DNA of 32,000 nt from Thermodesulfobacterium commune DSM 2178. Its GTDB lineage: Bacteria > Desulfobacterota > Thermodesulfobacteria > Thermodesulfobacteriales > Thermodesulfobacteriaceae. Made by a program: the position numbers and the translations under genes. Where the stretch lies: assembly GCF_000734015.1 (NCBI RefSeq), contig NZ_CP008796.1:390001-422000 (forward strand), read 5' to 3'. This document shows positions 7,202-30,684 of this stretch, one piece after another (the first letter of the stretch is position 1; each line of letters begins with the position of its first letter). The notes beneath the pieces are model-generated. The model saw only the letters and a program-made list of their open reading frames with translations. It was not told the origin of the DNA and made no database searches.

Positions 7202-7228
7202 GATTTTAGTTAATATCTAAAAACTTAA

Positions 7229-7267
7229 GCCCTGAGAGGTTTTAGAAGGCCTCTCAGGGCTTTTTTG
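7229..7267 (+). terminator. Rho-independent terminator
   Basis: GCCCTGAGAGG (7229-7239) pairs perfectly with CCTCTCAGGGC (7250-7260). T6 follows at 7261-7266. Confidence 0.85.
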
Positions 7268-7381
7268 TTTAATTTTTAAAGATCTAAAGTATTATCAATC
7301 TCAATTTATATTTTTCTTTTGATATATAACAATTTAGCTATATTATTATTATATAACATACTTTGTATGAGGAGGGTAGTG

Positions 7382-12833: not shown

Positions 12834-12858
12834 TCAGGACTTCCTCCTACTTTAAGTT

Positions 12859-13974: not shown

Positions 13975-13994
13975 TCCTAAACCCCTTTCTTCTT

Positions 13995-15518
13995 TTATTC
14001 TCCTGCATGTTTTACTTCAAGGATTTCCATTTCTTCTTTAGTTAACCCTATAGCCCTCAATTTGTCTCGATTGCTTCTTAAACTTTCTATCGAATTTAAT
14101 CCCATAGCTCCAAGCATTTCTTTGATTTCGCTTCTCCATGCATTCATAAGGTTATATACCTTCTCGTAGACTACTTCTGGTGGAAGCCTTTTGATAAGCT
14201 CAGGATTATTGGTAGCTATACCCCAAGGACATTTTCCTGTATAACATCTTTGACAGAGGGTACATCCTACGGCAATCAGAAGAGGGGTTCCTATCGCTAC
14301 CACGTCTGCACCTAAGGCGATGGCTTTCACCACATCAGCACTACAACGGATACCTCCAGAGGCGATTAACGTGGTTTTATGTCTGATACCTTCTTCTCTT
14401 AATCGTTTATCTACAGCGGAAATAGCAAGTTCTATAGGGATTCCTACATATTGCCTAAACATAGTCGGAGCAGCACCGGTACCTCCTCTTATACCATCTA
14501 TAACTACCGCATCGGCTCCAGCCCTTACTATCCCAGAAGCAATAGCTGCTATGTTATGTACTGCAGCTACTTTTACAAACACCGGCTTCTTATACTCAGT
14601 AGCCTCCTTTAAGGCATATATAAGGCCTCTCAAATCCTCTATTGAATAAATGTCATGATGTGGGGCTGGGGATAGAGCATCAGTCCCTAAAGGTATCATC
14701 CTGGTTTTAGAGATTTCTTTGTTAACCTTTTCTCCTGGAAGATGTCCCCCTATACCAGGTTTGGCTCCCTGACCTATTTTGATTTCAATGGCTACTCCAG
14801 CATTAAGATAATCTACATTTACCCCAAACCTTCCAGAAGCACACTGGACTATTGTATGGTCTTTGTATTCATACAAAGAAGGATGCAAACCTCCTTCACC
14901 GGTGTTGTAAAGAATTCCTAACTCTTTAGCTGCACGCGCCAGTCCTTGATGAATATGAAGACTTATAGATCCATAAGACATTCCAGAAAATATTATAGGC
15001 ATTTCTAACTTTATTAAAGGAGGTAAAGCTTTTTTTAGCTTATATCCTGTTTCTGTTTTTTCTACCTCTAATTTTTCGGGTTTTGACCCTATATAGGTAC
15101 GAAGTTCCATAGGTTCTCTTAAAGGGTCTATGGGTGGGTTGGTAACTTGACATGCATCGATGACAAGATGATCAAAATATATCTTTAAAGGTAAATCACA
15201 TCCGGTAGAAGAGAGTAAAACACCACCTTTGTCTGCTTGTTTGTATATGTTTTTTATAAAATAAGGATTCCATAGATGATGTTCTCTAAATTGAGAAGGA
15301 TGTCTTTTAATTATGATAGCATCAGTTGGACACATAGCTTCACATCTATGACATCCTACACATTTACCATGGTCTTCTTTGAGAATTTTCTTTTTTTCAT
15401 CCCAGGTATGCACCTCATAGGTGCACTCTTTAACACAGATTTTACATTTTATACATTTGTTTTCTAAGCGTTCTACAAAAAAATCCGGATAAAAACTTGA
15501 AAAGTTAATCGGCTTCAT
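13995..15518 (-). CDS. gltB: Glutamate synthase FMN/Fe-S domain subunit with an N-terminal 2x[4Fe-4S] ferredoxin domain (archaeal-type GltB)
   Basis: 507 aa. CIKCKICVKEC...CVGCHRCEAMCP are two ferredoxin Cys clusters. Further motifs are ...IKIGQGAKPGIGGHLPG..., ...SPAPHHDIYSIEDL..., ...VVIDGIRGGTGAAP... and ...ASGGIR.... Confidence 0.9.
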   Translation of the reverse strand: MKPINFSSFYPDFFVERLENKCIKCKICVKECTYEVHTWDEKKKILKEDHGKCVGCHRCEAMCPTDAIIIKRHPSQFREHHLWNPYFIKNIYKQADKGGVLLSSTGCDLPLKIYFDHLVIDACQVTNPPIDPLREPMELRTYIGSKPEKLEVEKTETGYKLKKALPPLIKLEMPIIFSGMSYGSISLHIHQGLARAAKELGILYNTGEGGLHPSLYEYKDHTIVQCASGRFGVNVDYLNAGVAIEIKIGQGAKPGIGGHLPGEKVNKEISKTRMIPLGTDALSPAPHHDIYSIEDLRGLIYALKEATEYKKPVFVKVAAVHNIAAIASGIVRAGADAVVIDGIRGGTGAAPTMFRQYVGIPIELAISAVDKRLREEGIRHKTTLIASGGIRCSADVVKAIALGADVVAIGTPLLIAVGCTLCQRCYTGKCPWGIATNNPELIKRLPPEVVYEKVYNLMNAWRSEIKEMLGAMGLNSIESLRSNRDKLRAIGLTKEEMEILEVKHAGE

Positions 15519-15562
15519 TTTTCACCCTTTTTATAAAAACTTTTTAAAGCTTCAAAAATATA

Positions 15563-15578
15563 ATCAAAAAGCATACCC
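15563..15578 (-). promoter_or_regulatory. Possible sigma-54 promoter for the glutamate synthase genes (imperfect -12)
   Basis: Reverse strand reads GGGTATGCTTTTTGAT, i.e. GG-N10-GA (TTGA instead of TTGC). It closely resembles the 5253 element TGGTATAGTTTTTGCA and ends 44 nt upstream of the 15518 start. Confidence 0.35.
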
Positions 15579-15638
15579 AATTTTTAGCGCTTTATAACGC
15601 CATGTCTTTAACCTAAATCTACATATATATACAATTTT

Positions 15639-16361
15639 TTACAATTTTGTTAATTTTTGTTGAAAGTTAAGACCTAAAAAACCAAAAATGTCTCTTGGAT
15701 ATATTTTTTTATTTTTAAAAATTACTAGTCTTTCTACTAAATTTTGGATTTCTAATATGTTATCAGGCCAAGGATATTCTTTTAATATTTCTATGGTTGA
15801 AGGATGAAAGGAAATTTTCTTGTTGTATATACGGTTAAATTTATTTAAAAAATGAGATAAAAGAACAGGAATATCATCTTTTCTTTCTCTTAAAGGTAGA
15901 ACCTGAAAGATATAAAAGTAAGTTTTAATTGGGTCTGACTGAATTTCTGAAGTAGAAGATGAAGCTATTATTTTTAATTGAGAGTTATATAAAATAAATT
16001 TAAGCAAATTCCTTAAAAGTTCTTCTGGAAAGGCCTCTAAGTGTTTTAAAAAGATAGTTCCATTTTGATTTTGCAGAAGATAAAACTCTTTAAGTATTTC
16101 TTCTTTATAAAAACATTCTAAACAGTCTAAATAAAAGAAAGGATGGTTTTTATTTGCTGAATGGTGGACTAATTTAGCTATAGAAGATTTTCCAACTCCT
16201 CTTTCTCCCCACAAAAGAAAGGGAATTTTAGAAGCATACAGTTTTTCCAGTTTACCCAATATCGTATTCAAATAAGGAAGGTCGATAAATTCCTTAAGAA
16301 CAACTTTAACAGGTTTAATTTTAAAAAGCCCCCGAGAAGGGGGCTTTTTAAAATCATTCAT
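15639..16361 (-). CDS. Degenerate sigma-54-activator-like AAA+ protein (no GAFTGA loop, no Walker B acidic pair, no receiver/GAF domain, no HTH)
   Basis: 240 aa. Walker A GERGVGKS is retained, as are the C-terminal bEBP blocks LPLRERKDDIPVLLSHFL and YPWPDNILEIQNLVERL. Where bEBPs have ...ELFGxxxGAFTGA...GTLFLDEI... this protein has a ~20-residue shorter segment ending GTIFLKHLE. FREDLYYR is replaced by IKTYFYIF. Confidence 0.7.
   Translation of the reverse strand: MNDFKKPPSRGLFKIKPVKVVLKEFIDLPYLNTILGKLEKLYASKIPFLLWGERGVGKSSIAKLVHHSANKNHPFFYLDCLECFYKEEILKEFYLLQNQNGTIFLKHLEAFPEELLRNLLKFILYNSQLKIIASSSTSEIQSDPIKTYFYIFQVLPLRERKDDIPVLLSHFLNKFNRIYNKKISFHPSTIEILKEYPWPDNILEIQNLVERLVIFKNKKIYPRDIFGFLGLNFQQKLTKL
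16323..16349 (-). terminator. Rho-independent (bidirectional-type) terminator just after glnA
   Basis: Minus-strand RNA reads AAAAAGCCCCC-UUCUC-GGGGGCUUUUU followed by AAAAUU. The GC core stem is 16328-16333/16339-16344. It lies inside codons 5-13 of ORF 15639-16361. Confidence 0.7.
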
Positions 16362-16363
16362 CT

Positions 16364-17698
16364 TTAAAGGACTGGCAGGTATTTTTCTATTTCGTATTCA
16401 AAAACCCTTATTCTGTAATCATCCCATTCTAATTTTTTGTTTGTGATAAGCTGATTATAGATGTGTTCACCTAAAACCTCCCTTAACACCGTACCTTTTT
16501 CTGCCTCCTCTATGGCCTCATACAAGCTTCCGGGCAACTCTTTTATACCTAACTTTTTTCTTTCTTCAGGAGTTAGATGGTATACATCGAGTTCTACAGG
16601 GTCTGGCAATGTGTATTTATTTTGAATTCCTTTTAAGCCTGCCCAAAGCATGGCTGCAAACGCTAAATATGGATTACATCCTGGGTCAGGAGACCTAAGT
16701 TCAATCCTGGTAGCTTTCTCTTTTCCTGGTTTATACATAGGAACCCTAATTAAGGCAGACCTATTTCTTCTTGCCCAACAGATGTAAACCGGAGCTTCGT
16801 ATCCAGGAACCAGTCTTTTATAGGAATTTACCCATTGATTAAGCACTAAAGTGATTTCTCTAATATGATTAAGTATTCCGGCGGTATATTGTTTGGCAAT
16901 ATCAGAAAGATGATATGGGTCTTGAGGGTCAAAAAAGGCATTTTTATCTCCTATGAAAAGAGACTGGTGGGTATGCATACCACTTCCGTTTACTCCAAAT
17001 ATAGGTTTAGGCATGAAGGTAGCATAAACTCCATATTTTTGAGCTATTTCTTTAACAGTAACCTTGTAAGTCATAACGATATCTGCCATGTCTAAAGCGT
17101 TGGCATACCTTAAGTCTATTTCGTGTTGAGAAGGAGCCACCTCATGATGAGAATACTCAACCCTAATCCCCATGGCTTCTAAAGCCAAAATGGTATCTCT
17201 TCTTAGGTCTTCAGCAGCATCTAAGGAATAATCAAAGTATCCCCCCTGATCCAAAATTTCAGGATTATTAGGTGATTTAAAGTAGAAAAACTCTAACTCA
17301 GGTCCTACAAAAAAATTTGTAAAACCCATTTCTTGCATTTTTTCTAACGCTTTCTTTAACACATACCTTGGGTCTCCTTTATAAGGACTACCATCTGGTT
17401 CATAGATATCGCAAAACATCCTTGCTACAGTTTTTTCTTTAGGTCTCCAAGGAAGAATGATAAAAGTCGTTGGGTCTGGAATAGCCACCATATCTGATTC
17501 ATCAATCCTTGCAAACCCCTGGATAGAAGAACCGTCAAATCCCATCCCTTCCTCAAAGGCAACCTCTAATTCATCTACGTGGATGGTAAAACTTTTTAGT
17601 TGACCTAATACATCGGTAAACCAGAGCTTTACAAACATTACATCATGAGCTTTGATAAGTTCCATCACATCTTTTTTGTCTCTGGGTTTGTTTAGCAT
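16364..17698 (-). CDS. glnA: Glutamine synthetase, type I
   Basis: 444 aa. Motifs are ...FVKLWFTDVLGQLKSF..., ...FDGSSIQGF..., ...GPELEFFYF..., ...KPIFGVNGSGMHTHQSL... and ...NRSALIRVP.... RBS GGAGGAGG is present. Confidence 0.95.
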   Translation of the reverse strand: MLNKPRDKKDVMELIKAHDVMFVKLWFTDVLGQLKSFTIHVDELEVAFEEGMGFDGSSIQGFARIDESDMVAIPDPTTFIILPWRPKEKTVARMFCDIYEPDGSPYKGDPRYVLKKALEKMQEMGFTNFFVGPELEFFYFKSPNNPEILDQGGYFDYSLDAAEDLRRDTILALEAMGIRVEYSHHEVAPSQHEIDLRYANALDMADIVMTYKVTVKEIAQKYGVYATFMPKPIFGVNGSGMHTHQSLFIGDKNAFFDPQDPYHLSDIAKQYTAGILNHIREITLVLNQWVNSYKRLVPGYEAPVYICWARRNRSALIRVPMYKPGKEKATRIELRSPDPGCNPYLAFAAMLWAGLKGIQNKYTLPDPVELDVYHLTPEERKKLGIKELPGSLYEAIEEAEKGTVLREVLGEHIYNQLITNKKLEWDDYRIRVFEYEIEKYLPVL

Positions 17699-17735
17699 CT
17701 TTTACCTCCTCCATCAAGGTTGTTTCAAAAATTAA

Positions 17736-17751
17736 AGCAATTTGTATGCCT
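17736..17751 (-). promoter_or_regulatory. Sigma-54 (-24/-12) promoter of glnA
   Basis: Reverse strand reads AGGCATACAAATTGCT with GG-N10-GC and a TTGC -12 element. It ends 37 nt upstream of the glnA ATG. Confidence 0.7.
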
Positions 17752-17956
17752 ATTAAAGCCTGGATATACAGTTTAGATAAAAAAGTTCGATATAAACCAA
17801 AAAGTGCATTAAAGTAAATTTTTGTAAAATTGTGTAACTTATGGTTCAATCAAATCCTTACATAGAAAATTTTTACACATATCTTGGTAAACTTGATAAG
17901 TTTTTAAAGGTAGTTATAATTTTTTATTGTAAAAACATAGTTTGAGAAAATGAAAG

Positions 17957-19489
17957 ATGATATCAAAAAATCAAATAGAACGAGCTTACCAAGAACTTCT
18001 TACTTTGTTTAAAGTGAGTAAGGTTTTAAGTTCATCTTTAAACATTTTTGAAAATTTGAAAAATGCTCTGCAAATACTTGCAGAAGACCTATATTTAACA
18101 AGGGGCACGGTTACGCTTTTTGATTCAGCTGTTAATGAGCTAAAAATAGTTGTAGCCTATGGACTTACAGAAGAACAGATTAGAAGAGGACGTTACAAAA
18201 TTGGAGAAGGTATTGTAGGTAAGGTTTTTGAATCAGGACAACCTATGATTGTACCAAACATAGGTGAAGAACCTATGTTTTTAAATAAAACAGGGGCCAG
18301 GGTTAAAAAAGACAAAATTTCTTTTTTATGTGTTCCCATCAAGTTAGGAGATGAAATCTTTGGGGTTTTATCGGTTGACAGGATATTTGATGTAAATACA
18401 GATTTTGCTGAAGACCTAAGGGTTTTAGAAATTTTAGCCACACTCTTTGCTCAGATAATAAAGATTTACAACTTACTCTATGAGGAGAAAAAGAAAAGAG
18501 AATTTTTTGAAAAAGAGGTAAAGAAAAAATATCAGTTTTACAATCTTGTATATTCTTCAGAACAGATGAGACAGATAATAAAGATATGTGAAAAAATCTC
18601 CTCTACCAAGGCTCCAGTTTTAATTCAGGGAGAAAGTGGTACCGGAAAAGAGTTAATAGCTAAAGCCATCCACTTTAACAGTGATAGAGCAGACAAACCT
18701 TTTATAGCCATAAATTGTGCGGCTATCCCAGAAAATTTATTAGAGGCAGAGCTTTTTGGTTATGAAAAAGGGGCTTTTACCGGAGCTTTTACCTCTAAGC
18801 CTGGAAAATTTGAGTTGGCTAACGGAGGGACTCTATTTTTAGATGAAATCGGAGATCTTCCTTTATCTCTTCAAGCTAAGTTGTTAAGGGTTTTACAGGA
18901 GCATACCTTTGAAAGATTAGGAGGAACTAAATCCATAAAGGTAGATTTTCGTTTGATTTCAGCTACGCATAAAAACTTAAAAGAGCTTATCAGCCAGGGT
19001 AAGTTTAGAGAGGATCTGTACTTTAGAATAAACGTAGTAAACATATACATACCTCCTTTAAGGGAAAGAAAAGAAGATATAGTGGTTTTAATCGAACATT
19101 TTTTAAATCAACTAAACCAAAAATATCAAAAATCGGTAAAAATTTCTAAAGAAGTTTTAAAAATTTTTTTAGAATATCCTTGGCCAGGTAATGTAAGAGA
19201 ACTTGAAAATACTCTTGAAAGTATGGTAATACTCTCTGATGATGAATTGATTACACCAGAACACCTACCTGAAGTTTTTAAATCTTGTCAAATAAGTCAA
19301 CCTAAATCTGATGTTCAAGAAAGTTCCTTACAAGCCATCAACCTCAAGCAACAAATAGAGGAAGAGGAGAAACAAAGGATCATCTCAGCACTTAAAGCTT
19401 GCAAGTTTAACCAAACGCAAGCAGCTAAACTTTTAGGGATGACAAGAAGACAGCTAAACTATCGTCTTCATAAGTATGGTATCATCTAA
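17957..19489 (+). CDS. Sigma-54-dependent transcriptional activator with N-terminal GAF domain (NifA/NtrC-like: GAF, AAA+, HTH), divergent from glnA
   Basis: 510 aa. The GAF-like N-terminus contains ...[20 protein letters not shown]...[19 protein letters not shown]...[19 protein letters not shown]+ motifs are [25 protein letters not shown] and [11 protein letters not shown]-terminal HTH is [24 protein letters not shown]. Confidence 0.92.
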
Positions 19490-19498
19490 CCAACCTTT

Positions 19499-20188
19499 TT
19501 AAAGGGTAAAGAATTTGTCATAAAAATTTTTTGCCCTTAATGAGTATTCTATATAGATTTCTTCTGATTCTTTAAGTATAACGTTTTTTAAAGGAAAGTC
19601 CTCAAACCATTGGGCAATTATATTTTTGGTTACTTCTACGTGAAATTGAAGGGCATAAACCTTTTGATCAAATTTAAAAGCTTGGTTTTCATAAAGAGTT
19701 GATCTTGCAAGATGGATAGCCCCTGAGGGGAGGTCAAAAGTGTCTCCATGCCACTGGAATACTTTAAATTTCTTAGAAATTTGGCCTGTTGCAGGATGTG
19801 TAGCTAAAGAAAGCATCAAAGGATCTTCTAAACCTTGGGGAGTTAATTCAACCTCAAACCAACCAATTTCCTCTTTAGGTCCTTTAAAAACTTTAGCCCC
19901 GAGAACATGAGCTATCAACTGAGCTCCAAGACAGATCCCCAGGACTTTTAAGTTTTTATTGATTGCTTTTTCTATAATTTGAGCAACACCCCTTAAATAG
20001 GGGTATTGCTCCATTTCATATACTCCCATCGGTCCACCCATTACAATTAACCCGGTGTAATCATCTAAACTGAAAGGTAGTTCTCCTTCTTGAGCTTCAA
20101 AAATTTTATAAGGGATCCGGTATTTTTTTAGATAGGTCTCTATACTTCCAGGCCCTTCTTCTTTTACATTTTTTATGATAGCTATCAT
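19499..20188 (-). CDS. Class I glutamine amidotransferase (GuaA-like GATase1 domain protein)
   Basis: 229 aa. The nucleophile elbow is ...VLGICLGAQLIA... and the His region is ...ALQFHVEVT.... It is the last gene after P-II, with a 12-nt gap. Confidence 0.8.
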   Translation of the reverse strand: MIAIIKNVKEEGPGSIETYLKKYRIPYKIFEAQEGELPFSLDDYTGLIVMGGPMGVYEMEQYPYLRGVAQIIEKAINKNLKVLGICLGAQLIAHVLGAKVFKGPKEEIGWFEVELTPQGLEDPLMLSLATHPATGQISKKFKVFQWHGDTFDLPSGAIHLARSTLYENQAFKFDQKVYALQFHVEVTKNIIAQWFEDFPLKNVILKESEEIYIEYSLRAKNFYDKFFTL

Positions 20189-20200
20189 TATTTTTTTCCC

Positions 20201-20551
<351 letters not shown>

Positions 20552-20570
20552 TTAAGTTTTTAGTTAGTTA

Positions 20571-21881
20571 TTAAAAATTATAAGCCTTTTCTCCATGTTG
20601 GGTAGAATCAAGTCCTGTAGTTTCCTCTTCATCTGAAACCCTAATTTTCATGAAAAGTCTGATGACCAGGAATATTATACCAGTCATAAGGGCAGTATAA
20701 ACTATGGTAATTAATACTGCAAGGATCTGTATAAGAACTTGGTTAGGGTTTCCATAAAGTAATCCCTTCCCAAGTTCATTGATAGATGGGTCTGCAAAAA
20801 CTCCAGTCAGAATAGCACCGATAATTCCTGCTACCCCATGAATTCCAAATACATCAAGAGCATCATCATATCCCAATTTTGATTTCATCGCTGTAACACT
20901 AAAATATGATAGACTTCCTGCTAAGATTCCAATGACCATAGCCCCAAACACGTTAACAAATCCAGCTGCTGGAGTTATGGCTACCAAACCAGCTACTATC
21001 CCGGAGGCAATCCCAAGTAGGGTAGGTTTTTTAGTAATCATCCATTCTGTAACCATCCAGGCAAGGGCTGCTACAGCACAGGCGAGGTTTGTATTAAGAA
21101 ATGCTTGGGCTGCAAGCCCATTTGAGGCTACAGCACTTCCTCCGTTAAATCCAAACCATCCAAACCATAAGATTCCACTACCTATCACCACTAAGGTTAA
21201 GTTGTTAGGGAGAAGATAATTCTTCTTTCTTTTCCCAAGGATTAAAGCTCCTACCAAAGCAGCTATCCCAGCGTTAACATGAACCACAGTTCCTCCTGCA
21301 AAATCAAGGGCTCCTAATTTAGAAAGAAATCCTCCTCCCCATACCCAATGAGCTACCGGTATATAAACAAGGCTCATCCATAAAACAGAAAAAATAATCC
21401 ATGCTGAAAACTTTATTCTTTCTATATAAGCTCCACTTATCAAAGCAACTGTTATCCCGGCAAACGTAAGTTGATACATGCAAAAAAGTACCTCTGGTAT
21501 CGTTCCTTGGAGAGAATCAATACTGATTCCTTTTAATAAGATTTTATCAAAATTTCCTATCATGCCTTTTATATCACCAGAAAAACTTAAACTATACCCA
21601 TATATCACCCATAATAAACTTACGATGCAATAGGCAACAAAGCTCATGGCTATGGTGTTTAGTACATCCTTTTTTTTAGCAAGGCCTCCATAAAAAAGGG
21701 CAAGGCCAGGAATTGTCATAAACATAACTAAAGCTGAAGAAATAAGCATCCAGGCAGTGTCTCCTGTGTCAAGTTTTGGTTGAGATGTTTGATCAGCTAA
21801 AACATCTTTCGAATAGACTAAAACCATCATCCAAGAAAATGCTAAAAAATTTAAGATTTGCTCCATAAATTTTTTTGTCAT
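20571..21881 (-). CDS. amtB: Ammonium transporter (Amt family)
   Basis: 436 aa. Motifs are ...DTGDTAWMLISSALVMFMTIPGLALFYGG..., ...ALDFAGGTVVHVNAGIAALVGA..., ...WFGWFGFNGGS... and ...DDALDVFGIHGVAGIIGAILTG.... AGGAGGGG lies 5 nt upstream of the start. Confidence 0.95.
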   Translation of the reverse strand: MTKKFMEQILNFLAFSWMMVLVYSKDVLADQTSQPKLDTGDTAWMLISSALVMFMTIPGLALFYGGLAKKKDVLNTIAMSFVAYCIVSLLWVIYGYSLSFSGDIKGMIGNFDKILLKGISIDSLQGTIPEVLFCMYQLTFAGITVALISGAYIERIKFSAWIIFSVLWMSLVYIPVAHWVWGGGFLSKLGALDFAGGTVVHVNAGIAALVGALILGKRKKNYLLPNNLTLVVIGSGILWFGWFGFNGGSAVASNGLAAQAFLNTNLACAVAALAWMVTEWMITKKPTLLGIASGIVAGLVAITPAAGFVNVFGAMVIGILAGSLSYFSVTAMKSKLGYDDALDVFGIHGVAGIIGAILTGVFADPSINELGKGLLYGNPNQVLIQILAVLITIVYTALMTGIIFLVIRLFMKIRVSDEEETTGLDSTQHGEKAYNF

Positions 21882-23385: not shown

Positions 23386-24534
23386 ATGATAAACAATCAC
23401 GTTAAGATTGTAGAGCTGTTTTTTAGTTTTTTAAAACTGGGGTTTACTGCTTTTGGTGGTCCTGCGATGGTAGCTTATATTAAGGAGTTAGTGGTAGAGA
23501 AAAGGGAATGGCTTGATAAACAAACCTTTCAGGATGGGGTAGTTCTTGCTCAGGTTATTCCCGGTGCAACTGCTATTCAGATGGCTGGTTATGTTGGGTT
23601 TAAAACCAGAGGAATTCTCGGAGGTCTTGCCAGTTTTACAGGTTTTGGGTTGCCTGCTTTCTTGTTCATGCTTTTTTTATCTCAGGTTTATGTTAAGACC
23701 CATGACCTTCCAAAGGTTATCTCAGTGTTTACTGGACTTCAAGTAGTAGTGGTTAGCATCGTTGCCAATGCCTTTTTAAGTTTTGCAAGACCTTTAGTTA
23801 ACTCTAAAGCAGAAATGTTTATGGCAATTCTTTCTTTTTTACTTTTATTTTTTAAGGTTAGTCCTTTTTTGATAATTTTTATATGTTTGGTTCTTTCTCA
23901 ACTGGTTTTTAAAGATGTTTCTATCAATAAAACAGAGACTTCAAAGAGGATAAATTATCAAGGTCTTTTAATCTTGATTTTTATTCCTTTTATAGAGTTA
24001 TTCTTTTTATACTTTTGGGATAAGACTCTTTTTAATATTTCTTTAGTTATGATAAAAATAGACCTTTTTGCTTTTGGAGGAGGCTATGCTTCTTTACCTC
24101 TTATGATGCATGAATTTGTAGATAGATTGGGCTGGATTGATAACAGAACTTTCATGGATGGTATAGCCCTTGGGCAAGTTACTCCAGGACCGATAGTGAT
24201 AACAGCCACTTTTGTCGGTTATCTATTAAAAGGTCTTTTGGGAGCTTTGATGGCAACGATTTCTGTTTTTACCCCATCTTTTATTATAATGGCATTATTC
24301 TGCGAGTTTTCAGATAAGATGAATCAATTAAAAATTTTTTTAAAAGCAAAACAGGGAATCTTAGCCTCTTTTTCTGCTTTACTTCTTTTTGTGTTAATTA
24401 AGTTTATAGTTTCTTTAGACTGGAATTTCTTGAAAGCCATGATGGCTATGGTGAGTTTCTTTGCCCTCTATCGAAAGGTTAACCTTGTTTACGTAGTTCT
24501 TATTTCTGTGTTGTTTTCAGCTTTTCTTTTTTAA
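23386..24534 (+). CDS. chrA: Chromate transporter family protein (ChrA, duplicated CHR domains)
   Basis: 382 aa. ...FLKLGFTAFGGPAMVAYIKELVVEKREWLDKQTFQDGVVLAQVIPGATAIQ... appears in the first half. The second-half repeat is ...DLFAFGGGYASLPLMMHEFVDRLGWIDNRTFMDGIALGQVTPGPIV.... Confidence 0.9.
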   Translation: MINNHVKIVELFFSFLKLGFTAFGGPAMVAYIKELVVEKREWLDKQTFQDGVVLAQVIPGATAIQMAGYVGFKTRGILGGLASFTGFGLPAFLFMLFLSQVYVKTHDLPKVISVFTGLQVVVVSIVANAFLSFARPLVNSKAEMFMAILSFLLLFFKVSPFLIIFICLVLSQLVFKDVSINKTETSKRINYQGLLILIFIPFIELFFLYFWDKTLFNISLVMIKIDLFAFGGGYASLPLMMHEFVDRLGWIDNRTFMDGIALGQVTPGPIVITATFVGYLLKGLLGALMATISVFTPSFIIMALFCEFSDKMNQLKIFLKAKQGILASFSALLLFVLIKFIVSLDWNFLKAMMAMVSFFALYRKVNLVYVVLISVLFSAFLF

Positions 24535-24649
24535 ACACATTTTAGTAACATTTTCTTTTTGGTTGTTTCACATTTAAATCACTAAAACTTGAAAAATTTT
24601 TCAAATTTTTTGCAATTTTAAGTTATAAAAAATATAAAAATATTTTTTA

Positions 24650-24677
24650 TTGACATTTTTTTAAAATATGTTATCAA
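24650..24677 (+). promoter_or_regulatory. Sigma-70-type promoter candidate for the TonB-receptor operon
   Basis: TTGACA (24650-24655), N16, TATCAA (24672-24677). The AT-rich context makes this a weak call. Confidence 0.3.
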
Positions 24678-24714
24678 AATAAGTAATAATTTTTAAAAAT
24701 ATGCTTTAAGTTAC

Positions 24715-24732
24715 AACTAATGCAAATTAGTT
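24715..24732. promoter_or_regulatory. 18-bp palindrome between the putative promoter and RBS, candidate repressor operator or 5'-UTR hairpin
   Basis: AACTAAT-GCAA-ATTAGTT has 7-bp perfect arms. It ends 17 nt upstream of the 24750 ATG. Confidence 0.3.
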
Positions 24733-24749
24733 CTTGATAGGGGGTTGAA

Positions 24750-27032
24750 ATGTGGGGCAAAAAAGCTTTATTTTTTATTTTGGCTTTAAAAATATTTTTT
24801 GTTTCTAAGGGTTTTGCAGAGGAGATCGATAAGGAAAGGTTGGAAAAAGAGGAATCTTTACCTGAAGTAATAGTTACTAGTGAAAAAATAATTACCCCTA
24901 CCAAAGAGACAGCAGAAACAGTTTATACAGGGATCGGGATCACCAAAAAAGGTATTGAACTATCTGGAGAAAGGGGTAGTAGCAACGTTTGGTCTATCTT
25001 AAATATTTTACCAGGGGTATATTTTGAAACTCCTGATCCTGCAGGTATTTCTTCAACTCAGAGAAGTATAACGATAAGAGGTGTTTCTGGTTCCTTGGGA
25101 ACGATGTCTGTTGAAGGGGTCCCTGTTTACGGAGGAAACCCTATCGGTCCAAGGGAATACATTTTTGATTTAGAAAACTTGGAGGCAATCGATGTCTACA
25201 GAGGGGTTATTCCTGTTGACCTTGGAACAGGTGCAGGAACAAGAGGGGGAACGGTTGAGTTAAAACCAAAATGGGCAAAAGATAAATTTGGGTTTGAATT
25301 TAAACAGGGCTTAGGGATGAATGATTATACTAAAACCTTCTTAAGGGTTGATTCGGGTAAATTACCGTCCTTAGGCACTAAGCTTTCCCTTTCTTATTCT
25401 TATGCAGAGGCAGATAAGTGGAGAGGCAAGGGAAAACTTGGTCCAAGAGAAAACCTAAACTTTACTTTGGTTCAGGCTTTAGGAAATAGAATTAACATAA
25501 AACTTTGGGCAAACTATAATGACCTTGACCATCATAAGTATGCTACTCTTTCATATCCAGATGCTAAGAAAGATAGATGGTTAGACTATAATGAAAACTT
25601 TACGGGCAATTCTACAAAAGATTGGTATTACTATAAATATCAGAAACTTGGATGGACAAATAAAGACTATTATGCCTTTTTAGATATAAAATTGTTAGAC
25701 CAATTGATGCTTCAGATAAAACCTTATTACAGAATAGAAGAAAAAGAGGATTGGAGCGGAACTATAAGCATCTCAGGTCCTATGAGACAAAGTAAACCAG
25801 GAGTAACCTGGAGTGGATGGGAGGTTAAAAGAAAAGGGGCTTTAACTCAACTTGTTTTTGATTTAAAGTTTGTTAGAGGACTTTTAGGTTACCATTACGA
25901 GCTTCAAGAGTGGGATGACAGACCTTCTAAAAACTATTGGTTAAACCCTGATGGTAGCTTAACTTTTATTGGATGGGGTAGATTTACCAAAAGTATTTCA
26001 GATGGCTATTCTTCAAGTCCTTACCTTAAGTTTGCAGGAAACATAGGTAAACTAAACTGGCAAGCAGGTCTTCAATATATAAAGAAAAAAGACGGAAAAA
26101 ATGAAGGATACATTACTCAATACAACGGAACAGTGCCTTACTTGCTAAGAGAGCCTAAACTTGACTATGGTGGAAGAAGTTATTCTGCTTGGGTCCCTTC
26201 CTTTGGTCTTTCATATTCTTTTAATGAAAAAATAGAAGTTTATACAAGCTTTGGTAAAACTTTTCAAACTCCTTATATGTATATGCCTATCGTAAACCTT
26301 TATTATCGCCTTTATGAGAAATTCAAAAAGATGGGCATAACTTTAGATGACCTGTTTAACGATTATAAGTGTGAAGAAACTTATAACTGGGATTTGGGGC
26401 TTAGGATTAGAGCAGAGAAATTTGAGTTATATCCAACTGTTTACTTCTCTAAACACAAAAACTTAAACACGCCTTTTACTCCAGGATGGAAAGATCCTGA
26501 TAACCCTGCCCAGCTTCTGATTGATCCTTCTACTGGTAGACCTGTAAGTTTTAATACCTTTATCGGTAAGGCGAGAGGATATGGTTTTGAGCTTGCTTCA
26601 ACCTTTCATCTTACAGATAAATTTTCCTTATTTTTTAACCCATCTTATGTAAAGATGAAATATGATGGAGACATCATAAGTGCCGGAACTCGTTATCCTG
26701 TGGATGGAAAACAAGTAATAGGAGTTCCAGAAAAGATGCTCACTACAGGACTTATAGCAAGGTATAAAGGTTTTGAAATAGTTCCCAGATTTAGGTATGT
26801 GGGTAGTTACTACGGTAATTTAGCACGTACAGAGAAGGTTTCTGGGTATGAAGTCTTTGATTTGATGGTTTCTTACAATAAAGAAGAAATAAGAAGTTTA
26901 AGGCTCAAAAACCTTAGGTTAACCGTTGAGTTTAACAATCTGTTTGATAGAAGATATATTTTTGGTACCAGCAATAACTATTACCCAGGAACTCCTTTTA
27001 ATGTCTTTGGGTCTATATCCTTTAATTTTTAA
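24750..27032 (+). CDS. TonB-dependent outer-membrane receptor
   Basis: 760 aa. The signal peptide is ...ALKIFFVSKGFA. The TonB-box/plug start is LPEVIVTSEK. The plug region is ...ILNILPGVYFE...ITIRGVSG...VPVYGG...LENLEAIDVYRG. A long beta-barrel follows, with a terminal ...ISFNF aromatic residue. Confidence 0.9.
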   Translation: MWGKKALFFILALKIFFVSKGFAEEIDKERLEKEESLPEVIVTSEKIITPTKETAETVYTGIGITKKGIELSGERGSSNVWSILNILPGVYFETPDPAGISSTQRSITIRGVSGSLGTMSVEGVPVYGGNPIGPREYIFDLENLEAIDVYRGVIPVDLGTGAGTRGGTVELKPKWAKDKFGFEFKQGLGMNDYTKTFLRVDSGKLPSLGTKLSLSYSYAEADKWRGKGKLGPRENLNFTLVQALGNRINIKLWANYNDLDHHKYATLSYPDAKKDRWLDYNENFTGNSTKDWYYYKYQKLGWTNKDYYAFLDIKLLDQLMLQIKPYYRIEEKEDWSGTISISGPMRQSKPGVTWSGWEVKRKGALTQLVFDLKFVRGLLGYHYELQEWDDRPSKNYWLNPDGSLTFIGWGRFTKSISDGYSSSPYLKFAGNIGKLNWQAGLQYIKKKDGKNEGYITQYNGTVPYLLREPKLDYGGRSYSAWVPSFGLSYSFNEKIEVYTSFGKTFQTPYMYMPIVNLYYRLYEKFKKMGITLDDLFNDYKCEETYNWDLGLRIRAEKFELYPTVYFSKHKNLNTPFTPGWKDPDNPAQLLIDPSTGRPVSFNTFIGKARGYGFELASTFHLTDKFSLFFNPSYVKMKYDGDIISAGTRYPVDGKQVIGVPEKMLTTGLIARYKGFEIVPRFRYVGSYYGNLARTEKVSGYEVFDLMVSYNKEEIRSLRLKNLRLTVEFNNLFDRRYIFGTSNNYYPGTPFNVFGSISFNF

Positions 27033-27056
27033 AAGTAAAAAAAGGGGGGTTATAAA

Positions 27057-27890
27057 ATGAAAAATCTTAAAAAAATTTTATTTTTAAGCTTCTTTCTCAT
27101 AAGTTTAAATTTTTCCTTGGCTCAAGCAGAAGGTAGACTTTATCTTGTTAGCACCGGGGTTGGAGACCCTGATAATTTGACCTTAAGGGCTTATGAAGTT
27201 ATCAAAAAAGCTGATGTTATCTTTTGCAGTAAATGGACTTGTGAAAGGGTAAAAAATTTAATTGAGGGAAAGGAGGTTTATGATGCAGGATTTGGTATTT
27301 TTCATCTTTTTTATCGAAAAGATAGAGGGAACCCTAAATCTCAGATAGAAATAAAGTCTTTAAGTTTTGATGAAAAAGAAAAAAGAAAAGAGCTTGAAAA
27401 GATAACCAAGATCATAAGAGAAGCTGTTAAGCAAGGTAAGGTGGTAGCCGTTCTTGAAGACGGTGATCCTACTATCTACGGTCCACATATATGGTATGTG
27501 GAGGCATTTAAAGACTTAAACCCAGAAATCATTCCTGGGGTTAGTTCTTTTAATGCAGCTAATGCTGCTATAAGAAAGAGCATCACCGGAGGTAAGGCCC
27601 AAAGTGTAACCCTTGCTGCAGGATTTTCTGACCTTGAGGCCCTTGCTAAAACAGGCACAAACCTTGTTATTTTTACCATGAGAATAAAAGACATAACTGA
27701 AGTTTTAAAGAAGATAGAAAAATATTACTCTCCAAAAACTCAAGTAATCTTTGTTTTGCATGCTGGTTATAAAGAAAAGGAAAGGGTTATAGCTGGAACC
27801 TTTGAAGATATCTATGAAAAAATCAGAGGAATTCAACTTCCTTTTGAATATTTAGTGTATGTGGGGGATTTTGGAGATTTTGATGAATAA
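27057..27890 (+). CDS. Tetrapyrrole-methylase-fold protein (CbiF/CobM precorrin-4 methyltransferase-like) carrying an N-terminal signal peptide
   Basis: 277 aa. MKNLKKILFLSFFLISLNFSLAQA is a typical Sec signal with an AxA site. The mature part has LYLVSTGVGDPDNLTLRAYEVIKKADVIF, VAVLEDGDPTIYGP, IIPGVSSFNAANAA and EYLVYVGDF, which are colinear with CbiF/CobM blocks. Confidence 0.7.
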   Translation: MKNLKKILFLSFFLISLNFSLAQAEGRLYLVSTGVGDPDNLTLRAYEVIKKADVIFCSKWTCERVKNLIEGKEVYDAGFGIFHLFYRKDRGNPKSQIEIKSLSFDEKEKRKELEKITKIIREAVKQGKVVAVLEDGDPTIYGPHIWYVEAFKDLNPEIIPGVSSFNAANAAIRKSITGGKAQSVTLAAGFSDLEALAKTGTNLVIFTMRIKDITEVLKKIEKYYSPKTQVIFVLHAGYKEKERVIAGTFEDIYEKIRGIQLPFEYLVYVGDFGDFDE

Positions 27891-29238
27891 AAATGTTACT
27901 CAAATTGAAATTAACTATGGATTTAAGGAAGAAAAACTGGTTTTAAAAAGAGAGATAGGGCTTATTCCTGCTATCATGCTTGTTGTGGGAAACACCGTAG
28001 GAACAGGTATTTTTACCACCTCTGGATTCATTATAAAGGAACTTAGAGATCCAGTGGCTCTTCTTTTTCTGTGGCTCTTAGGAGGTCTGATTGCTTTTTT
28101 TGGTGCTCTTAGTTACGCTGAGCTTGGTAGACTTTTTCCTCGGGCAGGAGGAGAATATGTTTTTTTGAAGGAAACTTTTGGCGAGATTTTTGGATTCCTT
28201 GCTGGCTGGATTTCGCTTATCGTTGGTTTTTCTGCTCCTATTGCTGCAACAGCTATTGCCTTTTCAAAATACTTCTTAGAACTTTTTTCCATACAAACCT
28301 CAGAACTAATCTCCAAACTTTTAGCTGTATCAGTGATTTTACTTCTTTCTTTAGTTCATACCCAACGAATTAAAATAGGGGCTAATTTTCAAACAGGAAT
28401 AACTCTCTTTAAAGTTTTTTTTCTTTTTACCTTTATTTTCTTTGGATTCATATACGCTAAAGAAGGAATGACTAACTTTGAGATCGGAAGTTTAGTTCCA
28501 AAAAAAGAGGCACTATTAAGCTTAAGTTTTCCTGTTTCTCTTATCTATGTTATGTATGCCTACAGTGGATGGAATGCTGCAACCTATATAGGAGAAGAGA
28601 TAAAAAATCCACAAAAAAACATTCCTTTAGCCCTTTTGTTAGGAATTTTAGTGATTGCAACTTTGTATCTGGGGACAAACTACCTTTATGTTAAAGTTCT
28701 TTCTTTTGAAGAGATGGCTGGCGTTGTGGAGTTAGGGGCTAAGACAGCCGAAAAAGTTTTTGGAAAAGAACTTTCTTTTATTTTTACTGCTGGTATTACC
28801 TTGGGACTTCTTTCTGTTTTAAGTGCTATGATACTTGCCGGACCAAGGGTATATTATGCTATGGCAAGGGATGGGGTATTCTTTAAAGTATTTTCAAAAA
28901 TTCATCCAGAAAAAAAGACCCCTATTTTTTCTATACTCCTTCAAGCACTAATTGCTATTTTTATGGTTTTGACTTCAACCTTTGAAGCTCTTCTTCTTTA
29001 CATAGGATTTACTTTATCTCTATGTGCAAGCCTGACAGTTTTAGGTCTTATGAAACTTAAGAAAAAATTTATTTTCTCAGCTTTTGCTTTTATTTTGGTT
29101 AACCTCTGGATGATTATTTTTACTATCGTTACTAAGCCTCTAACCCTTTTAGCAGGAATGTTAACTATCTTAGCAGGCTTAACACTGTATTATTTCAAAT
29201 TTAATCAAAAATTAAAAACAAAGGGGGGTAAAGCATGA
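27883..29238 (+). CDS. APC-superfamily amino acid/polyamine-type permease
   Basis: The track ORF starts at 27859. I prefer ATG 27883 because GGAGA lies 6 nt upstream and it gives an ATGAATAA overlap with the upstream stop. The protein has ~12 TMS and the N-terminal block ...LIPAIMLVVGNTVGTGIFTTSGF.... Another block is ...YAYSGWNAATYIGEEIKNPQKNIP.... Confidence 0.8.
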   Translation: MNKNVTQIEINYGFKEEKLVLKREIGLIPAIMLVVGNTVGTGIFTTSGFIIKELRDPVALLFLWLLGGLIAFFGALSYAELGRLFPRAGGEYVFLKETFGEIFGFLAGWISLIVGFSAPIAATAIAFSKYFLELFSIQTSELISKLLAVSVILLLSLVHTQRIKIGANFQTGITLFKVFFLFTFIFFGFIYAKEGMTNFEIGSLVPKKEALLSLSFPVSLIYVMYAYSGWNAATYIGEEIKNPQKNIPLALLLGILVIATLYLGTNYLYVKVLSFEEMAGVVELGAKTAEKVFGKELSFIFTAGITLGLLSVLSAMILAGPRVYYAMARDGVFFKVFSKIHPEKKTPIFSILLQALIAIFMVLTSTFEALLLYIGFTLSLCASLTVLGLMKLKKKFIFSAFAFILVNLWMIIFTIVTKPLTLLAGMLTILAGLTLYYFKFNQKLKTKGGKA

Positions 29239-29951
29239 AAAAATTTATTTTAAGTTTGGTTTTTATGTTTTTAACTTTTTTGTTCTGGGTAAAGATCGGT
29301 TTTTGTCATATGCTTTGGATAGAAGAAACTGACGGAAGGTTTAAAGTTCTTTGGGGACATAAAGGGAAGGTCGAATCTTATAATCCTGCAGCAATAAAAG
29401 AAATTAAAGCTTTTGATAAAAAAGGAAAATCTGTAACACTAAAAAAAGAAATAATTAATAACCAACTCCTTCTTTCAGGTAAAGAAAAGCCTTCTTTAAT
29501 CCTTGCTTCTATGGATGGGGTTTATCTGGTTACTACACCAGAAGGGAGAAAAAGAATGGATAAAATTGAAGCTCAAAAACAGGGTTTGCAAGTGGTAGAA
29601 AGTTTTTATGTGATTCAAGCAACCAAAGCAATTTTTACAGATTCATCTCTTCTAAAAAAACCCTTAGGATTAAAGCTTGAACCAGTTTTTGTAGAAACTC
29701 CATATGAAAGAAAAGACGAAGTTGTAATAAAGGTCTTATATGAAGGTAAACCAGCTGAAGGTGTAACCATTTTTAACCCTTTTCATAAAGAATTAGCTAA
29801 AACTGACACAAATGGGATAGCAAGAATAAGGGTTGAAGACCTTAAGATGAAAGAAAATTACTATGCCTTGGTGTGTTTTTATAAGTTAAAGATTTCAGAC
29901 CCTAAAGCTGACTATCTCTGGCTTATTACCTCTCTTACCTGGCAAAGATAA
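29235..29951 (+). CDS. Exported DUF4198-like (NikK/COG5266-type) putative periplasmic metal-binding protein
   Basis: 238 aa. After the signal peptide, HMLWIEE immediately follows the predicted cleavage region (the H-x-x-W start typical of DUF4198). The C-terminal beta-sandwich is ...VLYEGKPAEGVTIF...TDTNGIARI.... ATGA overlaps the upstream stop. Confidence 0.5.
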   Translation: MKKFILSLVFMFLTFLFWVKIGFCHMLWIEETDGRFKVLWGHKGKVESYNPAAIKEIKAFDKKGKSVTLKKEIINNQLLLSGKEKPSLILASMDGVYLVTTPEGRKRMDKIEAQKQGLQVVESFYVIQATKAIFTDSSLLKKPLGLKLEPVFVETPYERKDEVVIKVLYEGKPAEGVTIFNPFHKELAKTDTNGIARIRVEDLKMKENYYALVCFYKLKISDPKADYLWLITSLTWQR

Positions 29952-29977
29952 AATTTATAATAGGTGGGGGTAAAAGC

Positions 29978-30433
29978 ATGAAGAAGGTTTTGTTATTAAC
30001 ATGTTTTTTACTGTGTATAAGTTTTTTGGAAAAAATGTTTGCTCATGAGGTTAGTTATCAGGTAAGAGAAAGGGAGGGTATTTGTGTAAGTTTCTTTTTT
30101 GCAGATAAATCACCGATGAACTATGCAGAGATAGAAGTTTATTCACCAGATGAAAAAATACCTTTTCAAAAAGCAAGGACTGATAAAAACGGGATTTTTT
30201 GTTTTATGCCAGATAAAAAAGGTATTTGGAAGGTTATAGCGAAGGGAGAGACAGAACACGGGCTTCATAGTACAGAGATTGAAATAAAAATAAAGGATAA
30301 TTTAGATATAGCTCACTTTAAGAAGCCACTTATCGCTTCCCATATAAGGTTTTTTATCGCTTTTGGAATTGCAGGGTGGATTATAGGGATAACGGGTATT
30401 TATCTGTTCTTAAGGTCAAGAAAGTCTATTTAG
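29978..30433 (+). CDS. Small exported beta-sandwich protein (carboxypeptidase-regulatory/transthyretin-like) with a C-terminal membrane anchor, unknown function
   Basis: 151 aa. The signal peptide ends ...EKMFA followed by HEV. ...EIEVYSPDEKIPFQKARTDKNGIFCFMPDKKGIWKV... is the beta-sandwich region. The C-terminal TM is FFIAFGIAGWIIGITGIYLFL. Confidence 0.5.
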   Translation: MKKVLLLTCFLLCISFLEKMFAHEVSYQVREREGICVSFFFADKSPMNYAEIEVYSPDEKIPFQKARTDKNGIFCFMPDKKGIWKVIAKGETEHGLHSTEIEIKIKDNLDIAHFKKPLIASHIRFFIAFGIAGWIIGITGIYLFLRSRKSI

Positions 30434-30523: not shown

Positions 30524-30598
30524 CGCCCCCAAGGGGATTCGAACCCCTGTCGCCGGCGTGAAAGGCCGGTGTCCTGGACCTGGCTAGACGATGGGGGC
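30524..30598 (-). tRNA. tRNA-Glu (anticodon UUC)
   Basis: Reverse strand reads GCCCCCATCGTCTAGCCAGGTCCAGGACACCGGCCTTTCACGCCGGCGACAGGGGTTCGAATCCCCTTGGGGGCG. The acceptor stem is GCCCCCA/TGGGGGC. The anticodon stem CCGGC/GCCGG carries loop CTTTCAC. Confidence 0.9.
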
Positions 30599-30611: not shown

Positions 30612-30684
30612 TGGGCCGGGCAGGACTCGAACCTGCGACTCTCGGCTTAAAAGGCCGATACTCTACCGACTGAGTTACCGGCCC
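30612..30684 (-). tRNA. tRNA-Lys (anticodon UUU)
   Basis: Reverse strand reads GGGCCGGTAACTCAGTCGGTAGAGTATCGGCCTTTTAAGCCGAGAGTCGCAGGTTCGAGTCCTGCCCGGCCCA. The anticodon stem TCGGC/GCCGA carries loop CTTTTAA. Confidence 0.9.

Follow-up and report, generated by a model that had tools for sequence, protein, structure and literature searches.

Uptake through a TonB-dependent receptor is normally completed at the cytoplasmic membrane by an ATP-binding cassette (ABC) importer, and nickel and cobalt are taken up by energy-coupling factor (ECF) transporters, by NiCoT permeases or by ABC importers. Some ECF transporters for nickel and cobalt, reportedly described by Rodionov et al. in 2006, contain NikK and NikL and are written Nik(K)(L)MQO. 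Metal capture in the periplasm is also known from DUF4198 proteins: Zcp of Neisseria gonorrhoeae captures zinc there and binds cobalt, nickel and copper in vitro (PMC12663993), and the Zur and Fur regulons of Caulobacter include DUF4198 proteins beside metal-regulated TonB receptors (PMC4176598, PMC3751524). A stretch of 32,000 nucleotides from Thermodesulfobacterium commune DSM 2178 (contig NZ_CP008796.1, positions 390,001 to 422,000; called the window below and numbered from its first nucleotide) carries an operon in which relatives of NikK and NikL keep different company. They stand with a TonB-dependent receptor, an exported homolog of the tetrapyrrole methylases (TPM), and an amino acid-polyamine-organocation (APC) permease resembling the L-type amino acid transporters (LAT/SLC7). 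Its parts are as follows.

24535-24749, + strand: intergenic, AT-rich stretch with the leader and promoter of the operon, by inspection of the sequence
24750-27032, + strand: TonB-dependent receptor, 760 aa (PF07715 and PF00593)
27057-27890, + strand: TPM, an exported TP_methylase homolog resembling CbiF/CobM, 277 aa (PF00590)
27883-29238, + strand: LAT/SLC7-type APC permease, 451 aa (AA_permease_2, PF13520)
29235-29951, + strand: exported protein of the DUF4198/NikK-like type, 238 aa (PF10670)
29978-30433, + strand: exported, NikL-like anchored protein of the beta-sandwich kind, 151 aa (NF058648, below cutoff)

The five open reading frames (ORFs) fill 24750-30433, all on the + strand, with spacings of 24, -8, -4 and 26 nt, in exact agreement with the initial annotation of this DNA, which had noticed five co-directional genes with these gaps and overlaps. 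A G-rich Shine-Dalgarno sequence precedes all five start codons. A GGAG stands 7 nt ahead of the permease start at 27883, and an earlier ATG at 27859 is without a Shine-Dalgarno sequence; the permease is translationally coupled to TPM via the 8-nt overlap. No ABC, ECF, ExbB/ExbD or TonB gene is found among the window's ORFs of at least 100 aa, and no riboswitch is found in the window at the Rfam gathering threshold, nor in 24400-24900 at E≤10; the initial annotation had already reported these absences, naming the B12 riboswitch. ECF components M, Q and O are lacking both from the window and from the Pfam-annotated conserved neighbour clusters of related loci, and because they are absent the system is not an ECF transporter.

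I propose, at a probability of about one half, that this operon serves the TonB-dependent acquisition of a chelated transition metal, which is relayed into the cell through the APC permease. The receptor would bring a metal-chelate complex into the periplasm, where TPM, together with the DUF4198 protein, would bind or process the chelate in a conserved ligand cleft. The DUF4198 protein, NikK-like, would capture the metal at its N-terminal histidine site and pass it on to the membrane-anchored NikL-like protein. This in turn would hand it to the LAT-type permease, standing in place of a NikM/Q/O or ABC module, and the permease would carry the metal into the cytoplasm, probably in the form of an amino-acid-type complex. 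Gene content, export signals, co-conservation, fusions, conserved histidines and, in relatives, metal-linked regulation are observed; the order of the hand-offs, the identities of metal and chelator, and translocation of the metal by the permease are what I infer here. Nickel or cobalt is the most likely metal in this organism, by analogy with NikK and NikL, and iron or cobalt is indicated in other lineages.

The first ground for the proposal is that the genes travel together. One genome per species (GTDB) was searched with an alignment of TPM homologs, and the best 80 of 249 loci were kept; their ORFs were called, searched with the window proteins and clustered, and the clusters were named by Pfam. 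An ortholog of the permease is present in 55 of the 80 loci (E 1e-70 to 1e-123), a TonB-dependent receptor in 58, a DUF4198 protein in 38 and a NikL-like protein in 20, while eight have a 107-aa NikL relative without the anchor (cluster c26). ExbB/ExbD/TonB genes lie in the same operon in about 20 loci, FmdE-like genes occur in 19, FeoB in seven, and a 1080-aa protein combining Spermine_synth, major facilitator superfamily (MFS) and tetratricopeptide repeat (TPR) parts in ten. Nearly all the system genes of these loci (242 of 245) share the strand of TPM, and the permease gene follows TPM directly in 34 loci; in 15 of these the two genes overlap by the 4 nt ATGA. Orthologs of the window receptor hold the same position in L001-L005 and are found as an extra receptor in Desulfobacterales loci. 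Tandem TPMs (about 560 aa) of Desulfobacterales always have DUF4198 after them.

The system is present in at least 75 species. Among its carriers are Thermodesulfobacteria, Desulfobacterales, Desulfovibrionales, Desulfobulbales and Syntrophobacterales; the TPM gene is 100% identical in Thermodesulfobacterium thermophilum DSM 1276. Other carriers are Geobacter, Syntrophorhabdus, Arcobacteraceae, Chromatiaceae, Thauera, one alphaproteobacterium, Prosthecochloris and metagenome-assembled genomes of Bacteroidales, and Planctomycetota have TPM with DUF4198 only. The five-gene grouping exceeds chance, since it is conserved elsewhere. The initial annotation had allowed that the genes might prove not to be co-conserved; the opposite is found, with TPM, permease and receptor kept together on one strand in dozens of species that belong to several phyla.

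The reciprocal test starts from the permease. Metagenome contigs were searched with an APC alignment and the matches scored with a custom APC hidden Markov model (HMM). The scores are bimodal, 13 loci lying at 654 or above and 67 at 589 or below. Ten of the 13 high-scoring permeases adjoin TPM, receptor, DUF4198, NikL or FmdE, two are on short contigs, and the remaining one, in L081, is without system neighbours. None of the 67 low-scoring paralogs lies beside TPM or a specific system gene, though two have a weak and distant match to a receptor profile. A bimodal score, with linkage confined to the high-scoring group, makes the permease a dedicated ortholog group and no stray amino-acid transporter. 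It had also been envisaged that the permease might be an ordinary amino-acid transporter expressed independently; this is contradicted by an ortholog group found almost only in the context of the system.

In L081 the permease ortholog (5974-7341, +) is divergent from a gene for an exported LCM-type (PF04072) methyltransferase that uses S-adenosylmethionine (SAM) (4632-5600, -). Genes for B12-binding radical-SAM and SPASM radical-SAM proteins are also near.

Then there are the gene fusions. In the APC-NikL fusion proteins (P0343, P0345 and P0367; 621-626 aa) the permease is followed by an extra transmembrane (TM) helix, the stretch ALA-HGTEG...GMGH and a C-terminal anchor; the stretch is the NikL beta-sandwich with both conserved histidines. 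One such operon reads ExbB-ExbD-TonB-DUF4198-receptor-TPM-[APC-NikL]-FmdE-FmdE. Where NikL is separate, it is almost always the immediate neighbour of the permease, often overlapping it, and two metagenomic loci (L082, L088) have the APC-NikL pair only, with no TPM nearby. An exhaustive search of representatives gave exported DUF4198-TPM fusions (P0128, P0144, P0166), and TPM is further found fused with an Oxidored_molyb-like domain and with an SBP_bac_6 solute-binding domain. The fusions give two Rosetta-stone links, one joining TPM to DUF4198 and the other APC to NikL, and these divide the system into a pair for processing in the periplasm and a pair for import at the membrane. A seeming TPM-APC fusion in L049 (734 aa) was rejected as an artefact of ORF extension in high-GC sequence, because the reading frames differ.

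The protein identities first given to the five genes are upheld by Pfam and NCBIfam (Plug and barrel, TP_methylase, AA_permease_2, DUF4198, NikL-like). TPM matches PF00590 with 142 bits. Its best NCBIfam match is cobM_cbiF (TIGR01465), at 91.7 bits against a cutoff of 259.65, and all other methylase equivalogs are also below their cutoffs. The closest PDB sequence is that of CbiF (4e16, E 3e-14). With an AlphaFold2 model (pLDDT 78.5) Foldseek places CobM 3nei and CbiF 4e16/1cbf at the top with probability 1.00, followed by CysG, at 21-23% identity; judged by this model, the fold of TPM is the class III tetrapyrrole-methylase fold. The protein has a Sec-type signal peptide (MKNLKKILFLSFFLISLNFSLAQA), a family-specific insert at about residues 77-105, and motifs of its own, SSFNAANAA and PFEYLVYVGDF. 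TPM is no CbiF ortholog, because it scores below cutoff, is exported and stands in the wrong gene context.

The family comprises 50 clusters at 50% identity (E≤1e-30). Throughout its alignments (A1 and A5) the SAM-type motifs, namely the G-x-G-D loop, GDP-x-I, PG-x-S-S, F-x-M and A-G, are invariant or nearly so. The SAM contacts of CysG in its UniProt annotation, P225, G301-G-D303, I306, T331-A332, M382 and G411, align with V35, D135-G136-D137, I140, S163-S164, M208 and G237 of TPM. All of these except V35 and D135 are invariant or nearly so, S164 varying among S, C and A only, and this holds for each of the four paralog types and for either half of the tandem TPMs. Signal peptides are found on nearly all TPMs that adjoin receptors. 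Four relatives, in Advenella, Marinobacter, Halomonas and Pigmentiphaga, are clearly without a signal, and there neither the permease nor a receptor is present.

The signal-less genes of Marinobacter and Halomonas (L066 8009-10750; L073 8000-10741) overlap a DHA2-like MFS gene by 8 nt. A divergent 165-aa gene in L066 encodes a MerR-family regulator, and the divergent gene of L073 is from the same ORF cluster. This is a different and apparently metal-responsive setting of the same enzyme family, whose signal-less members are cytoplasmic.

TPM, the DUF4198 protein and the NikL-like protein all begin with a hydrophobic signal segment. The fourth gene matches DUF4198 (PF10670) with 48.9 bits against a cutoff of 34, and a profile of its family finds PDB 9mhi at E 3e-36 and NikK 9gcb at E 7e-14. 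The fifth has a weak C-terminal match to DUF4198 in Pfam, scores 49.1 bits against NikL (NF058648; cutoff 100), and ends in a TM segment. Their mature proteins start H-M-L-W and H-E-V, as had been stated, and the first mature residue is an invariant histidine in both families. In the DUF4198 family H25 and E149 are invariant and W28, G41 and H42 nearly so, as is a WGH motif; for a three-histidine site like that of Zcp, H25 and H42 are candidates, and a third histidine was not identified. In the NikL family H23, G82 and H94 are invariant in 13 relatives, the anchor-less c26 type included. These features make the DUF4198-like protein a putative periplasmic metal-binding protein. The PDB entries 9mhi-9mho (274 aa), best match of the DUF4198 profile, were deposited as 'Phosphoribosylglycinamide formyltransferase', a name that looks like a mislabel of a DUF4198 protein.

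The permease matches AA_permease_2 (PF13520) with 181 bits; its best NCBIfam match is the LAT subfamily TIGR00911, whose cutoff of 701.8 is not reached at 243 bits. Among PDB sequences it aligns over its full length with xCT (E 5e-55), and y+LAT, LAT1/2, b0,+AT and BasC are also matched. A crude hydropathy scan gives 11 TM segments, the family norm being about 12. The motifs G-x-G-I-F of TM1 and (Y/F)-x-x-G-W-N of TM6 are kept, and G40, G42, F44, Y227, S228, G229 and W230 are invariant. A clue to the substrate was sought in residues specific to the APC subfamily by comparison with unlinked paralogs; the changes are conservative only and give none.

The window receptor is recognized by its Plug (PF07715, 38 bits) and its TonB_dep_Rec barrel (PF00593, 99 bits). 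It falls below the cutoffs of the NCBIfam subfamilies for siderophores (124.9 of 223.5 bits), hemin (TIGR01785; 75.9 of 316.85) and B12 (TIGR01779; 20.3 of 599.7). Receptors of Chromatiaceae, Thauera, Arcobacteraceae and Geobacter score best against TIGR01785, also below cutoff. FRAP/NPxL boxes occur in five of 67 receptors, none of them in those four groups or of the window type. The identity of the partner receptors as heme receptors was rejected in view of the sub-cutoff scores and rare boxes: their sequences do not class these receptors with those for heme or B12.

Some of the Desulfobacterales receptors that adjoin TPM contain in-frame TGA codons (L007 1075-3249, L016 1629-3677, L021 1172-3286, L022 1424-3580, L028 7772-9895, L012 5936-7996 and L070 3646-5712), one each and two in L070. 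Their motifs are C-(E/Q)-(V/I)-U-(T/S)WGSG, LPCPU and MPUVUD. The uninterrupted receptor of L024 scores 775 bits against the NCBIfam 'FCYXU motif-type' model (cutoff 825), and a TonB-dependent receptor is listed as a selenoprotein in PMC12013277. On these motifs, the TGA-containing receptors are selenocysteine (CxxU) receptors tied to the system.

FmdE-like proteins recur in several forms (L075 4678-6177, L072 12705-13784, L036 12346-13095, L161 7691-8365). That of L075 is an exported fusion of an IU-nucleoside hydrolase with FmdE, its DTDxxxDD motif intact. Other exported FmdE forms are seen, and one of these has the heme-c-like motif CIECH. In an FmdE-zinc-ribbon gene that overlaps an APC-NikL gene no signal peptide was noted, so that its product is probably cytoplasmic. 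The protein of about 1080 aa, with MFS-like, spermine/spermidine-synthase and TPR parts, is encoded after the cluster in L072 (13754-17002) and nine other loci of the Desulfosarcina type. It is a possible chelator synthase/exporter; crude hydropathy gave no clear topology.

Regulation in relatives is linked to metals. In the Arcobacteraceae locus L056 there are nine sites resembling Fur boxes (at most 4 mismatches) where 0.13 are expected, all of them in gaps between ORFs. They precede FeoB, DUF4198, the ExbBD-receptor-TPM-APC operon and a second receptor. Such enrichment is confined to Arcobacteraceae, Geobacter having few sites. The island itself (L056 80-15930, and L057) contains FeoB, c26 (a small His/Cys beta-sandwich), DUF4198, ExbBD, receptor-TPM-APC, the second receptor and a 728-aa gene of cluster c59. 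LysR genes are divergent from the system in Chromatiaceae, and AraC-type regulators adjoin several loci.

The orthologous operon is directly preceded by a cobalamin riboswitch (RF00174) in two loci only, L015 and L024 (Desulfobacterales), and others lie nearby in further loci.

L015, 1426-1611, - strand: cobalamin riboswitch
L015, 2012-2211, + strand: cobalamin riboswitch
L024, 1336-1520, + strand: cobalamin riboswitch
L007, 14554-14724: cobalamin riboswitch
L061, 13372-13544: cobalamin riboswitch
L075, 19936-20003: cobalamin riboswitch

A second, divergent riboswitch in L015 drives an exported CbiK (331-1224), with a signal and the N-terminus HGHHHPQH. The other nearby riboswitches precede genes for ChlI/ChlD-like chelatases or a set of MFS, FmdE and activase genes. 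In 24 other Rfam-screened loci no riboswitch was found. The initial annotation had tentatively linked the operon to a metal or a corrinoid or tetrapyrrole, and this link gains support from the DUF4198-TPM fusions, the Fur boxes, and the cobalamin riboswitches with an exported CbiK next door. The Rfam screen also gave a type II hammerhead ribozyme at L045 2582-2646 (+), which scores 77.6 bits and lies about 7 kb upstream of TPM; the locus is from Desulfovibrionaceae.

In the window a perfect palindrome, AACTAATGCAAATTAGTT (AACTAAT-GCAA-ATTAGTT; 24715-24732), stands downstream of the likely promoter and just upstream of the receptor's ribosome-binding site. No second copy occurs in the window at 0 mismatches, the sister species T. 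hveragerdense (L002) retains the palindrome, and it may be an operator for some regulator. The window has no Fur-like site at up to 4 mismatches, a NikR box is found neither there nor in any locus, and a scan for promoters and terminators gave counts not above those of shuffled sequences.

Several observations weigh against the proposed metal relay. TPM retains its SAM motifs although it is exported, which the relay does not explain. The permease keeps the TM1 and TM6 motifs of alpha-amino-acid exchangers and has no distinctive changes in its pocket relative to paralogs, and I know of no LAT/SLC7-type APC protein that carries a metal or metal complex. The permease of L081, without TPM and beside an exported LCM methyltransferase, better fits a role related to SAM. 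A riboswitch directly upstream was found in only two of the 34 related loci screened with Rfam, and with no Fur box, NikR box or riboswitch in the window, the metal handled there is a guess.

The main rival takes up the first of these points. It holds that exported TPM is an active SAM methyltransferase that acts in the periplasm on an imported metallated tetrapyrrole or chelate, the permease exporting SAM and retrieving S-adenosylhomocysteine (SAH), and the metal entering elsewhere, or through FeoB where that gene is linked. Methylation could loosen the metal for capture by DUF4198 and NikL. The SLC7/LAT relatives of the permease are obligatory exchangers, and the SAM-contact positions of TPM (G136-D137, I140, S163, M208, G237) are kept, on a mapping from the CysG annotation. 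The four signal-less relatives do without permease and receptor, as expected if only the exported form needs SAM; the L081 ortholog adjoins a SAM methyltransferase that is itself exported; FeoB is linked in Geobacter, Arcobacteraceae and others; and L075 has its exported nucleoside hydrolase-FmdE fusion. I nevertheless consider the idea rather unlikely. To my knowledge there is neither a periplasmic SAM pool nor a SAM exporter. The export of SAM, a cation, works against the membrane potential, and at the temperature at which Thermodesulfobacterium grows, SAM is unstable. SAM supply alone hardly explains the APC-NikL fusions and the TPM-free pairs of L082 and L088, and L081 is a single locus with divergent orientation. 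Unlikelier still is the claim in its full form, that TPM is a working periplasmic SAM methyltransferase, with the permease its SAM/SAH exchanger, that modifies tetrapyrrole-type chelates so that anaerobes can strip them of cobalt, nickel or iron. If true, it would form a category of its own, since no SAM-dependent chemistry and no SAM export system are known to me from the bacterial periplasm. The initial reading of the operon as a whole is supported. For the permease as candidate cytoplasmic-membrane step, the role first suggested for it, fusion and adjacency to NikL support a place in the metal-handling machinery, and what it carries may be the metal or, for example, SAM and SAH.

It is also possible, though I think it improbable, that the cargo is the intact metal complex of an amino-acid-type chelator derived from SAM, similar to nicotianamine or the opines. 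TPM would then be a binding protein that uses its former SAM pocket, the permease would import the whole complex, possibly in exchange for free chelator, and the Spermine_synth-MFS-TPR proteins would make and export the chelator in some loci. A permease that keeps alpha-amino-acid motifs and a TPM whose pocket is conserved suit this idea, as do the ten loci with the 1080-aa gene after the cluster and the AraC-type regulators, which are typical of siderophore systems. Pseudopaline enters through the TonB-dependent receptor CntO, for which no inner-membrane importer is known to me. Yet no homolog of nicotianamine synthase or opine dehydrogenase was seen, the Spermine_synth gene is missing from 70 of the 80 loci, the window included, and DUF4198 and NikL metal chaperones are needless if the complex stays intact. 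Moreover, the SAM-contact residues should drift if the ligand is not SAM.

Uptake of an intact tetrapyrrole, corrinoid or heme, is less probable again. It would have TPM as a carrier like BtuF or HmuT and the inner-membrane transporter either elsewhere or in the permease. The fold of TPM is indeed that of enzymes that bind corrin precursors, and an exported homolog of a tetrapyrrole enzyme is already known in Desulfovibrio, the chelatase CbiK(P). In L015 and L024 a cobalamin riboswitch precedes the operon, others lie near the ChlID-like chelatase and CbiK genes, and the receptors of four groups prefer the hemin model. It is too much to expect of a LeuT-fold LAT permease that it pass a macrocycle of 600-1400 Da. 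The riboswitches belong to a small minority of loci, the preference for TIGR01785 is below cutoff in groups that lack FRAP/NPxL boxes altogether, and the window receptor reaches 20 bits against BtuB and 76 against the hemin models.

A chance neighbourhood, with an ordinary amino-acid transporter between unrelated genes, would suit a permease that is unremarkable in sequence and generically annotated at source as an amino-acid/polyamine antiporter, but is scarcely credible, contradicted as it is by the conservation of the grouping in several phyla, by translational coupling, by the permease's dedicated ortholog group and by its fusion with NikL.

The chromate transporter gene (ChrA) directly upstream of the operon was rejected as a member, since it is upstream in the two closest species only. 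On the 3' side are two tRNA genes (30524-30598, and 30612-30684 on the - strand), which directly bound the operon, and then mobB on the opposite strand; a third tRNA gene lies at 1566-1637 (-). A compact cluster for nitrogen assimilation (12090-21881, -) contains Amt, PII, GATase, glutamine synthetase and sigma-54 activators, and its glutamate-synthase (GOGAT) domains are split across three genes. An SBF-family gene (bile acid:Na+ symporter or ACR3-like) is divided between overlapping ORFs at 8818-9390 and 9321-9896, which suggests a frameshift or a sequencing error.

A metal relay through the permease, if that is what the operon provides, would give bacteria a new inner-membrane route, made of a LAT/SLC7-type carrier, NikK/NikL chaperones and, outside the cytoplasm, a homolog of a methylase from the B12 pathway. 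TPM would be a new class of periplasmic protein in the acquisition of metals and micronutrients, and the question is posed whether SLC7-type transporters carry metal complexes or SAM. The system places DUF4198, NikL-like and FmdE-like proteins, as well as selenocysteine TonB receptors, in a functional setting. Sulfate reducers, Geobacter, purple and green sulfur bacteria and Arcobacteraceae are among the carriers, from habitats where sulfide makes cobalt, nickel and iron scarce, so the system may matter for the economy of trace metals and B12 in anoxic sediments and hot springs. It is apparently widespread in bacteria and undescribed. As the initial annotation had supposed, no description of a system so composed was found in full-text searches of open-access literature, an absence that is no proof, and a 2024 survey of nickel homeostasis in cable bacteria, one relative of which carries the system, does not mention the combination.

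How far does the operon resemble what is known? As proposed, it would work in the manner of Ni/Co uptake assisted by NikK and NikL, and of TonB-dependent metal capture assisted by DUF4198. Uptake of opine metallophores (CntO with pseudopaline, Cnt with staphylopine) and of B12 by BtuB-BtuFCD is likewise import, by way of TonB, of a chelated metal or metallated macrocycle, and control by a B12 riboswitch or a metal repressor, as in those systems, is seen in some relatives of the operon. Unlike them, the operon lacks Cnt biosynthetic genes and an ABC importer, and it encodes no periplasmic NikA- or BtuF-type binding protein. Nik(K)(L)MQO transporters, some of them linked to TonB receptors, share its exported NikK-like and anchored NikL-like parts with histidine as first residue; the operon differs in having a LAT-type permease instead of NikM, NikQ and NikO and in the near-obligatory addition of an exported CbiF-like protein. 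With Zcp it has in common DUF4198, putative metal binding based on histidine, an association with TonB uptake and metal-responsive regulation, but Zcp is monocistronic and dispensable for zinc import (PMC12663993), whereas here DUF4198 is embedded in an operon and sometimes fused with TPM. CbiF and CobM, the best matches of TPM in structure and sequence, share its fold and SAM-site motifs; TPM departs from them in its low identity and sub-cutoff score, its Sec signal, insert and private motifs, and its place in an uptake operon and not among cob/cbi genes. Finally, the permease is clearly homologous to the SLC7/LAT exchangers (xCT, LAT1, b0,+AT, BasC), with the 12-TM LeuT-fold type and TM1/TM6 motifs in common, but unlike them it belongs to a subfamily dedicated to TonB/metal operons, is coupled to an exported protein, and is sometimes fused to a periplasmic metal-binding domain.

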